DNA from: a virus
DNA length: 64,000 nucleotides
Reading direction: 5' to 3' (one strand)
Virus record (IMG/VR): IMGVR_UViG_3300037484_000374
Location: 32,001-96,000 of that record
A program made the position numbers and the translations under genes. Below are positions 1 through 3,528 of the stretch, piece after piece; the stretch's first letter is position 1; the number at the start of each line of letters is the position of its first letter. Below the pieces are notes generated by a model, which searched no databases, was not told where the DNA came from, and saw only the letters and a program-made list of their open reading frames with translations.

Positions 1-64
1 TGTCTATGTGTAGGTTATATACTTTTTTTGGTTTTTTTATTATTTTTCTTTTTATAAGTTTCAT
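1..64 (-). CDS. uvsW: Split intein C-half (IntC) start, presumably fused to the UvsW C-extein; runs off the window edge
   Basis: Hand-translated from ATG at 64: MKLIKRKIIKKPKKVYNLHID; basic N-terminus plus block F-like VYNLHI; lies 60 nt downstream of the IntN stop. Confidence 0.8.
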   Translation of the reverse strand, partial: MKLIKRKIIKKPKKVYNLHID

Positions 65-99
65 ATGTCTTCTTTAGGTTATTAAATATATGATCGCTA

Positions 100-128
100 A
101 ATATATCATTATTTTTGTAAAATGTCAA
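100..128 (-). promoter_or_regulatory. Sigma70-type promoter for the IntC gene
   Basis: TTGACA-N17-TATATT with extended TG; the -35 box contains the TGA stop (125-127) of the upstream half-gene. Confidence 0.65.
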
Positions 129-1099
129 GGGTTATTGCTAATTATATCATCATTTTCATCTAATTCATCTGCCCTTACCCATCCTCTATTTTTTGTAAGT
201 ATCTTGTGGTTACCGGTAACACACAATACAGTACCATCATCAAATATTAACTCATACATTTCTTCTTCTGTTGATATAGTCAGGTTAATATATAAATTTT
301 TAACAATATCATTTTCATATTTTTTATTTTTTTCATTATAGGATATTACAATATCACCGATCATAATATCTTTTATTTTTACTAAACCTTTACTGGTTAA
401 AATCTCTGTATTGCCATCTAAACATTCATCAACAATGACAGATTGAAATCTAAGCATTTCTTTCTTTCTGCGTTGTAGTGATTGCCATGTTGAAATAACA
501 ATTGGTTTATCAAGCTGTTTTGTTTTTGCGTTCAGCTTCCCTATCAACTTTTCATCCATTCCATACTCTATAAGATCAGATTTGAATTGTTCTATAAGGG
601 AAAGATTAGGGACAATAATTATAACATTGTTGGTTATCTTATTCTCAAGAAGGGTTTTGGTAATATATGCAATCATTACCGACTTTCCACTAGCTGTCGC
701 TGATCGAATAATTCCCTTAGAAGTCCTCAGAGCCGTTCTAATGCAATCTTCCTGATAGTTGTAGGGGTAGTATAGTAAGTCCCATTTTGGATCAATGGCG
801 ATACCTGTGAACGTTTTCTTGACATCAACCTCAACCTCGTATATGAGATCGGGCCAATCTTTGATTGTGTATTTGATTACGTCTAATAACAGACCGTAAG
901 GGAATGTTCTCTTAGGTTTGCTGAATTTACTTACTTTCCCATTCCATGCACCATTTTTGAATTTTGGCATGAAATAATAGTTATCCACAAATTCTGAAAG
1001 AAATTCCATCACTCCTTTCAGGTAGTCGTAGTTACCAGTATCAATCCTTATGTTTAATGGGTCATGATATTTGAATATTATTGTTGGGTTAGCCGACAT
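125..1099 (-). CDS. uvsW: UvsW-like SF2 helicase N-terminal half fused to split intein N-half
   Basis: YPYNYQ Q-motif, SATASGKS Walker A, STWQS, VIVDE followed directly by intein block A CLDGNTEILT; next to uvsY. Confidence 0.9.
   Translation of the reverse strand: MSANPTIIFKYHDPLNIRIDTGNYDYLKGVMEFLSEFVDNYYFMPKFKNGAWNGKVSKFSKPKRTFPYGLLLDVIKYTIKDWPDLIYEVEVDVKKTFTGIAIDPKWDLLYYPYNYQEDCIRTALRTSKGIIRSATASGKSVMIAYITKTLLENKITNNVIIIVPNLSLIEQFKSDLIEYGMDEKLIGKLNAKTKQLDKPIVISTWQSLQRRKKEMLRFQSVIVDECLDGNTEILTSKGLVKIKDIMIGDIVISYNEKNKKYENDIVKNLYINLTISTEEEMYELIFDDGTVLCVTGNHKILTKNRGWVRADELDENDDIISNNP
128..424 (-). mobile_element. Split intein N-half (99 aa), inserted in the DExH motif
   Basis: CLDGNTEILT (block A), CVTGNHKILT (block B TxxH), acidic tail RADELDENDD, then stop; no endonuclease domain. 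Confidence 0.88.
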
Positions 1100-1570: not shown

Positions 1571-1578
1571 TATTTATA
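1571..1578 (-). promoter_or_regulatory. T4-type late promoter upstream of uvsY
   Basis: TATAAATA on the minus strand. Confidence 0.5.
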
Positions 1579-2435: not shown

Positions 2436-2669
2436 CTATTCTGTTTTGTCTGATTCTTTCTTCATAAGAAGATATTCAAACTCTGAGAAGCAGAACATAT
2501 TCACAACACCGGCATCAACATTTTTAATAATCTGATACACAACGTATGTTATCTCTTCAATGACAACAATGGTGTTTGGTGGTGACACAAAGGATGCATT
2601 GATTTCTTCATAGAAAATCTGATTTGTTTTGGCATTAATATATCTTATAATTGTCATTTTATTCTCCAA
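2436..2669 (-). CDS. Hypothetical protein
   Basis: 77 aa ORF packed within the operon. Confidence 0.6.
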   Translation of the reverse strand: MENKMTIIRYINAKTNQIFYEEINASFVSPPNTIVVIEEITYVVYQIIKNVDAGVVNMFCFSEFEYLLMKKESDKTE

Positions 2670-3528
2670 AAAATAAACTCATAGTCTCATGAGTGTTGTT
2701 TAGGATATACTCTCTGTTCATCGGCACCAATAATATATTCACTTTACTCAAGAAAAATTTATCATATTGTTTATCAAAATCAACTTCTACCTGAAACTCC
2801 TTTGGCCAATGGTGATAAGATACGGTGTCTATGTCGTATGGATTTTTCTTTATATATACAACCTTTACTTTATCACCCTCGTTAATTACCTCGTATTTAT
2901 TTTCTACTCCATGGTGTTTTAGTAGGAACCTGTAATTCCACACACCCTTTACATGCCAAGGTGTTCTTTTTATTTTCTCACCTGTACCGAGATATTTTTC
3001 AAGGTTCTTGACACCAATATTTGAACTGATATCCTCTATCTTGGCGTTTTTCATTACTCTTTTATATGTTGCTATTATATCCCTTATTTCAGTATCGTTA
3101 GCCCCTCGAAGGATCATTCCCAGAATATTTTTAAGAGCGTTCCTGAACACTGTAGGTGTCTCTGAGCGTATAATTTCGAGGCCGGTGACTTCTATCTTAT
3201 CACAATTAAAACCCTCTTCATTTACAACATTATAACCATACTTCTTTTTCTTGACAAACAGAATAGATTTACATACGATTTCCTGTTTAAATCCGATCTT
3301 GAAATCTTCAACAGCTGAGTTGTATGATATCTTCTGTGTTTCGTTGTACGCTCGATCTTCAACATATGATTCTATGATCTTTGATATTCTCAAAACAAGA
3401 TCACACTTTTCCATATCAGTGTGTTTATTCCACTGTTCGGGGGTGACACCTCTATTATATAGGAAATCCCGAACCCCTATAAAAAGCGAGTCAGTATCGA
3501 TGTAATAGATATAGTCATTCTCTTTCAT
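2659..3528 (-). CDS. gp43: Family B DNA polymerase, C-terminal subunit (gp43B-like: motif C and thumb)
   Basis: YIDTDS motif C, KKKKY, VTGLEIIRSETP, TPWHVKG. Confidence 0.92.
   Translation of the reverse strand: MKENDYIYYIDTDSLFIGVRDFLYNRGVTPEQWNKHTDMEKCDLVLRISKIIESYVEDRAYNETQKISYNSAVEDFKIGFKQEIVCKSILFVKKKKYGYNVVNEEGFNCDKIEVTGLEIIRSETPTVFRNALKNILGMILRGANDTEIRDIIATYKRVMKNAKIEDISSNIGVKNLEKYLGTGEKIKRTPWHVKGVWNYRFLLKHHGVENKYEVINEGDKVKVVYIKKNPYDIDTVSYHHWPKEFQVEVDFDKQYDKFFLSKVNILLVPMNREYILNNTHETMSLFFGE

Follow-up and report, generated by a model that had tools for sequence, protein, structure and literature searches.

A candidate naturally split intein in the UvsW helicase of an uncultured T4-like phage

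Results

A helicase gene in two pieces

At one edge of the 64,000-nt window analysed here (G000:C1:32001-96000 of a 170,951-bp IMG/VR record), a gene for a UvsW-type helicase lies on the minus strand as two separate ORFs. The first of these (125-1099, -) encodes 324 aa and reads ...QSVIVDE, then CLDGNTEILT...TGNH...DDIISNNP, followed by a TGA stop. Its residues 1-225 (425-1099, -) are the N-half of the helicase (the N-extein), which carries the UvsW_N domain and the Walker A motif (GKS) and runs up to motif II (...VIVDE). Pfam recognised UvsW_N (PF21241; 32.7 bits against a cut-off of 25.3), ResIII (1.5e-15) and DEAD (3e-9) in this half, and phrog_16259, a 'DNA helicase' family, matched it end to end (2.1e-60). 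The N-extein is about 50% identical to unsplit relatives of 476-500 aa.

The second ORF opens at an ATG (64-62, -), and the first 21 of the 35 residues of its intein C-half, IntC (MKLIKRKIIKKPKKVYNLHID), lie inside the window (1-64, -), with the rest beyond the window edge. Followed into the adjoining DNA, which we read as locus L001, this ORF grows to 297 aa, with IntC ending at G000:C1:31960 and the C-extein and its stop extending to C1:31171 (L001 5171-6064, -). After the 35-aa IntC the protein continues as CHGCKAAILE... and then as a helicase C-domain (Pfam Helicase_C, 1.2e-9). Its best PDB match was T4 UvsW (2oca_A, E = 1.2e-19), aligned from query residue 34 on, and a second PHROGs family, phrog_9690, matched the C-half end to end. 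An earlier note on this DNA, made from its letters, had described a helicase ORF that breaks after VIVDE into a 99-aa intein N-half and a stop (TGA, 127-125), and a separate ORF that starts at ATG 64, exactly 60 nt (124-65) past that stop; both are found as it described them, and the helicase sequence that it sought in the second ORF is there.

The two pieces together have the make-up of a UvsW-type SF2 helicase: the UvsW N-domain and the SF2 core are both present, T4 UvsW is the nearest solved structure, and tblastn matched genes annotated as uvsW. At motif II, unsplit relatives read VIVDEVHGAKA, and after splicing the protein of this phage would read VIVDE-CHGCKA, with no residue gained or lost. 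The predicted spliced helicase would have 225 + 262 = 487 aa, as compared to 476-500 aa in the relatives. We found no second copy of UvsW in the 171-kb record; since the completeness of this record is estimated by CheckV at 71%, a second UvsW may be present elsewhere in the genome.

The source phage is an uncultured, T4-like phage known from a metagenomic contig. When its major capsid protein is compared with those of pelagiphage HTVC008M, cyanophages and Sinorhizobium phages, identity does not exceed 39%, indicating that the phage is far from all cultured ones, and a megablast search of the UvsW locus against the phage collection gave no match. Across the genome, TGA ends 15 and TAA ends 73 of 95 long frames, so that the standard genetic code applies.

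Intein motifs in the two halves

The remaining 99 residues of the first ORF (residues 226-324; 128-424, -) form the N-terminal intein half, IntN, in which CLDGNTEILT is followed by VTGNHKILT and finally by ADELDENDDIISNNP and the TGA stop. IntN scored 28.9 bits (32.4 in a second search) against the NCBIfam model intein_Nterm (TIGR01445, cut-off 24.5), and IntC scored 27.2 bits against intein_Cterm (TIGR01443, cut-off 15.6). Taken singly, the halves score 31.5 and 16.9 against Pfam Intein_splicing and so fall short of its gathering threshold (35.8), as is expected for half domains.

The residues that define a class-1 intein are in place. Block A begins with a Cys directly after VIVDE (C1, invariant in 35 relatives), and the TxxH of block B is TGNH at IntN residues 70-73, with T70, N72 and H73 invariant in the same number of relatives. 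IntC ends in ...NNNYTANGVVVSN (VVVSN/CH, the slash marking the junction), and in block G the terminal Asn (N35), the +1 Cys (C36) and the +2 His are invariant in 35 diverse relatives. The penultimate residue is Ser34 and not His, a substitution found throughout the family. The earlier note had looked for HN followed by Cys, Ser or Thr at this point; the terminal Asn and the Cys are as it anticipated, and the His is replaced by Ser. Position 4 of block F is Asn17, compared to Asp in Spl DnaX, the solved intein with a printed alignment on which this comparison rests; the Asn, too, is family-wide, occurring also in contiguous members. Contiguous versions of the same allele must splice, because helicase function needs it. 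Because the whole family has both substitutions, and such members have the Asn as well, we do not read Ser34 and Asn17 as signs of inactivity.

A profile of the IntN family matched solved inteins, including Npu DnaB (4o1r, 8.9e-10), Spl DnaX (7cfv, 1.5e-8), gp41-1 (6qaz, 5e-6), Ssp DnaB (1mi8) and NrdJ-1, with 8ubs also among the matches, the solved DnaB, DnaX, gp41-1 and NrdJ-1 inteins spanning E values from 9e-10 to 6e-5. The IntC profile aligned with the C-terminus of Spl DnaX, and lies in register with the isolated 36-37-aa IntC chains of Npu DnaE (4lx3_B and 4qfq_B), which indicates that the split is at the canonical site.

We also modelled IntN and IntC as a complex, with 10 extein residues added to IntC and a 35-row alignment for each. 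The score was 0.63 as compared to 0.00 for the best control; of 80 solved complexes, 58 score this high, and of 110 mismatched pairs, 2 do. The runs shared at least 91% of their contacts, and the partner pLDDT was at least 68. The model favours an association of the two halves, although its score may stem from likeness to split-intein complexes that have been solved.

The spacer between the halves

The halves are separated by a spacer of 60 nt (65-124, -), which is in frame with both. It follows the TGA stop of the N-half (125-127, -) and contains a second in-frame stop, TAA (76-74), as well as a purine-rich, RBS-like AAAGAAG (75-69), a weak RBS for the IntC ORF. The two intein halves therefore stand on separate ORFs, bounded by the TGA at 127-125, the TAA at 76-74 and the ATG at 64, as is required of a split intein.

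A sigma-70-type promoter-like site (100-128, -) lies in the spacer and the stop before it. It consists of TTGACA (128-123), a 17-nt spacing, an extended -10 TG (108-107) and TATATT (105-100), and with 11 of 12 consensus matches plus the extended -10 it is the top site in the 2.8 kb that we scanned. Its -35 box overlaps the TGA, so that the stop of the N-half lies inside the -35-like hexamer. The genome contains a class of TTGACA-N14/15-TGnTATAAT sites, which makes sigma-70-type early promoters plausible for this phage, and we infer that the spacer site may serve as a promoter for the C-half. Fractured relatives carry TATAAATA right after the IntN stop instead of a sigma-70-like site. The same element, which is the T4 late-promoter consensus, also occurs in the window at 1571-1578 (-), 16 nt upstream of the ATG of a 149-aa ORF that precedes the UvsW N-half. 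As a late promoter of the N-half operon this site is no more than a lead, the count of the motif in the window (15 against 12.1) being not above chance. The 149-aa ORF was considered as a possible UvsY but matched no Pfam or PHROG family.

A second contig, L085 (22 kb, IMG/VR sample 3300037692), carries the same arrangement. Over 551 nt covering IntN, the gap and IntC it is identical except for one SNP, a non-synonymous change in the IntN tail, and both stops, including the TGA inside the -35-like hexamer, and the spacer are the same. Because this independent contig shows the same gap, the split is not an assembly or sequencing error. Compared to this near-identical contig, the helicase halves show few substitutions and no frameshift. 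The point at which IntN ends is also conserved, to within a few residues, in more than 50 distinct relatives. The earlier note had named a sequencing error at the 125-127 stop as one way in which its reading could fail; the second stop, the identical gap in the independent contig and the conserved split site together show that stop to be genuine.

The gap holds no ORF for an endonuclease, and tblastn with the endonucleases of two relatives found nothing in the 171-kb record, bearing out the earlier statement that no endonuclease lies between the halves. A free-standing endonuclease between the halves, which characterises the fractured genes of Dassa et al. (2009), is accordingly absent at this locus and present in 41 distinct relatives. 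We searched the 60-nt spacer for a remnant of the 3' end of an endonuclease gene, and obtained only a weak match (5.6 bits; E = 0.016 in a very small search space of 18 short targets) that was partly forced by the overlap with IntC codons. It is likely that the endonuclease has been lost at the UvsW locus of this phage.

A family of UvsW inteins with and without an endonuclease

The same intein occurs at the same site (DE/C) in the Salmonella phages S16, STP4-a and SEA1, in Proteus phage PM2 and in about 150 IMG/VR contigs. Scanning IMG/VR with a profile of IntN only retrieved 148 relatives, from which 80 loci were kept, and an HMM-based classification placed IntN after the ...DE of a UvsW-like helicase in every one of these. 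Most are split, with a gap of 830-980 nt that holds an endonuclease gene (41 distinct sequence pairs); nine pairs, representing eight lineages besides this phage, are split by a short gap without an endonuclease. The intein is contiguous in two loci and in the proteins P0127 (609 aa), P0130 (683 aa, 152 members) and P0125, and IntN is fused in frame to an endonuclease in L106 and P0129. The middle ORF of the fractured relatives gave weak NUMOD3 and TnsA-like endonuclease matches and also matched an 'endonuclease' PHROG.

Four of the endonuclease-free loci (L154, L123, L119 and L162) retain a clear trace, 17-36 residues, of the endonuclease 3' end before IntC (E = 4.5e-17 to 1.5e-6); these four are products of deletion. 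The loci without an endonuclease do not cluster together in a maximum-likelihood tree of the intein, and at least 5 changes are needed to account for the branches with good support. In this tree L105, a contiguous form, falls with the fractured L138 and L139 (98/90), and this phage forms a long branch that is sister to a fractured clade (96/75). The remnants, together with a contiguous form nested among fractured ones, indicate that the endonuclease was lost or gained repeatedly, at least five times. Some of the contiguous inteins may be split ones that were fused again.

The closest endonuclease-bearing relative, L005 (6519-8755; IMGVR_UViG_3300007987_000018), shows a further break. A second interruption, in its UvsW C-half, measures about 2.2 kb and contains two ORFs (274 and 385 aa), so that the helicase is in at least three pieces.

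Charge of the halves and a second split intein in the same genome

IntN has 11 K/R against 19 D/E (net -8), and IntC has a net charge of +8, all of it within the first 15 residues, in agreement with the acidic IntN and basic IntC that the earlier note had reported. Across about 50 distinct relatives, the charge of IntC ranges from -4 to +4 with a mean of about 0; the IntC of this phage is a clear charge outlier among them.

The genome contains a second split intein, in a gp41-type replicative helicase about 10 kb before the start of the window (G000:C1:20051-21936, -; L166 950-2835). The gp41 N-half (465 aa) ends in a basic IntN of 91 aa (20 K/R against 8 D/E, +12), and the C-half (144 aa) starts with an acidic IntC of 62 aa that ends in TKN/S (4 K/R against 13 D/E, -9); a 53-nt gap without an endonuclease separates them. 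The polarity of this pair is opposite to that of the UvsW pair in the same genome.

Discussion

A split intein that probably assembles the helicase

Very probably, the UvsW gene of this T4-like phage contains a naturally split class-1 intein at motif II (DE/CH), and protein trans-splicing produces the 487-aa helicase. As read from the sequence, two adjacent genes would be translated separately, one giving the N-extein (225 aa) with the acidic IntN (99 aa), the other giving IntC (35 aa) with the C-extein (262 aa). We infer that the halves associate, probably aided by their charges, into a canonical HINT fold, and that they splice in trans. The reaction would use Cys1, the block-B Thr and His, Asn35 and the +1 Cys: Cys1 would undergo an N-S acyl shift, the +1 Cys would carry out the trans-thioesterification, and cyclisation of Asn35 would release the intein, leaving a 487-aa helicase with an intact DECH box. 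The locus represents an endonuclease-free form of a family that is mostly fractured by a free-standing NUMOD3/TnsA-like endonuclease gene.

The charge pair that would aid splicing would equally suit tight non-covalent binding, and it is conceivable, though unlikely, that the intein halves are splicing-dead and only hold the two helicase pieces together by dimerising non-covalently, in the manner of phage Aeh1, whose split NrdA has no intein. Endonuclease-split genes can function without splicing (cited in PMC2677866; PMC3045599), and the Asn in block F, in place of the usual Asp, could be taken the same way. However, C1, the TxxH, the terminal Asn and the +1 Cys are all retained, and the block-F Asn is shared by the whole family, including contiguous members, in which splicing is a necessity. 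If some 134 residues of unspliced intein stayed within motif II (DExH), they would, in addition, probably disturb the ATPase site.

We regard it as very unlikely that the UvsW gene of this phage is decaying and has lost its function, with the intein halves left as relics. In T4, UvsW is not a strictly essential protein, and the loss of the endonuclease is itself evidence of deletions at the locus; but each half is an open frame of full length in which all helicase and intein motifs are intact, the halves differ from L085 by only a few substitutions without a frameshift, and a promoter-like site and a start codon are placed for the C-half. That the gap is an assembly or sequencing artefact, or that stop codons are recoded within a contiguous mini-intein, is hardly credible even though both ORFs are in one frame, 20 codons apart, and contiguous relatives have, where their linker leads on, an internal MKL[IV]K in the corresponding place, as the gap has two different stops (TGA and TAA) that are ordinary stops in this genome, an independent contig shows an identical gap with one SNP nearby, and over 50 distinct relatives have the end of their IntN within a few residues of this point.

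Relation to known split inteins

The trans-splicing UvsW intein that we propose adds to a known kind, the fractured phage genes with split inteins, which include gp41-1 to -8, NrdJ-1, IMPDH-1 and NrdA-2 (Dassa et al. 2009, PMC2677866). That study lists eight enzyme types, among which UvsW is absent, and gp41-7 is its sole locus without an endonuclease. As in those cases, the split intein interrupts a catalytic motif in a phage gene of DNA metabolism, and the halves lie on adjacent ORFs; like gp41-7, the UvsW locus has no endonuclease gene between the halves, and in its relatives the fractured arrangement is complete, a free-standing endonuclease included. Unlike that set, the host is UvsW, the site is DE/CH, and the endonuclease of the relatives is NUMOD3 plus TnsA-like; the copy described here further differs from the inteins of those fractured genes in its Cys at +1, its SN junction and its 35-aa IntC.

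The inteins of S16, STP4-a, SEA1 and PM2 belong to the same allele (DE/C), with an IntN of 97-98 aa that is 56-61% identical to that of this phage and an IntC of 35 aa. They differ in having a 291-aa endonuclease ORF between the halves, an AHN/C end and an IntC charge of +4, and the helicase exteins are only about 36% identical between this phage and the S16/PM2 group. In the public records of S16 (HQ331142.1, 104626-107352) and PM2 (MF001355.1, 101056-103788) the split intein is unannotated; the pieces are labelled 'ATP-dependent DNA helicase', 'hypothetical protein' and 'helicase', and elsewhere 'DNA helicase', 'uvsW_1' and 'uvsW_2'. A full-text literature search, which left most subscription journals outside its coverage, returned no description of the UvsW intein or of the intein of S16-like phages.

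The division into about 100 + 35 aa at the canonical site, with Cys1 and Cys+1, resembles that of Npu and Ssp DnaE. Npu DnaE also has an acidic IntN and a basic IntC, and a Ser before the terminal Asn, as does the UvsW pair. The two are distant in sequence (7qil, E = 0.006 with the IntN profile), and the UvsW intein has an Asn in block F. The DnaE halves are far apart in a cellular genome, whereas the UvsW halves are 60 nt apart in a phage. Nearest in sequence among solved inteins are the DnaB and DnaX mini-inteins (4o1r, 1mi8 and 7cfv; IntN 8.9e-10 and 1.5e-8, IntC 0.006), which in contrast are contiguous, splice in cis, occupy other hosts, end in HN and have an Asp in block F.

Use as tools, and a possible re-tuning

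Split inteins are in standard use for protein ligation, and every new orthogonal pair is useful. The UvsW family is a source of well over 100 natural variants that have a short IntC of 35 aa and a Cys at +1, and the copy described here combines unusually strong charge complementarity with a second pair of opposite polarity in the same genome. The family also displays all the proposed stages of split-intein origin together: contiguous, fused to the endonuclease, fractured, and endonuclease-free with or without remnants. For annotation, the consequence is that UvsW of S16-like Salmonella phages and of many metagenomic phages is now labelled as two unrelated 'helicase' genes.

A further possibility, which we consider rather doubtful, is that the split intein was re-tuned after the loss of its endonuclease (IntC to +8, IntN to -8), so that the UvsW and gp41 pairs would be naturally orthogonal, fast-associating pairs, and that the C-half has its own promoter, by which assembly of the helicase would be timed by two transcription programmes. 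If true, the phage would carry a natural set of orthogonal split-intein pairs, along with promoter-timed assembly of a helicase.

One more gene that seems to be broken was seen in the window. An ORF of 289 aa (2659-3528, -) has its start shortly ahead of the YIDTDS polymerase motif, and its match to Pfam DNA_pol_B (453 positions) is confined to positions 255-412. It looks like the C-terminal part of a family-B DNA polymerase encoded in pieces, and no intein motif was seen in it.
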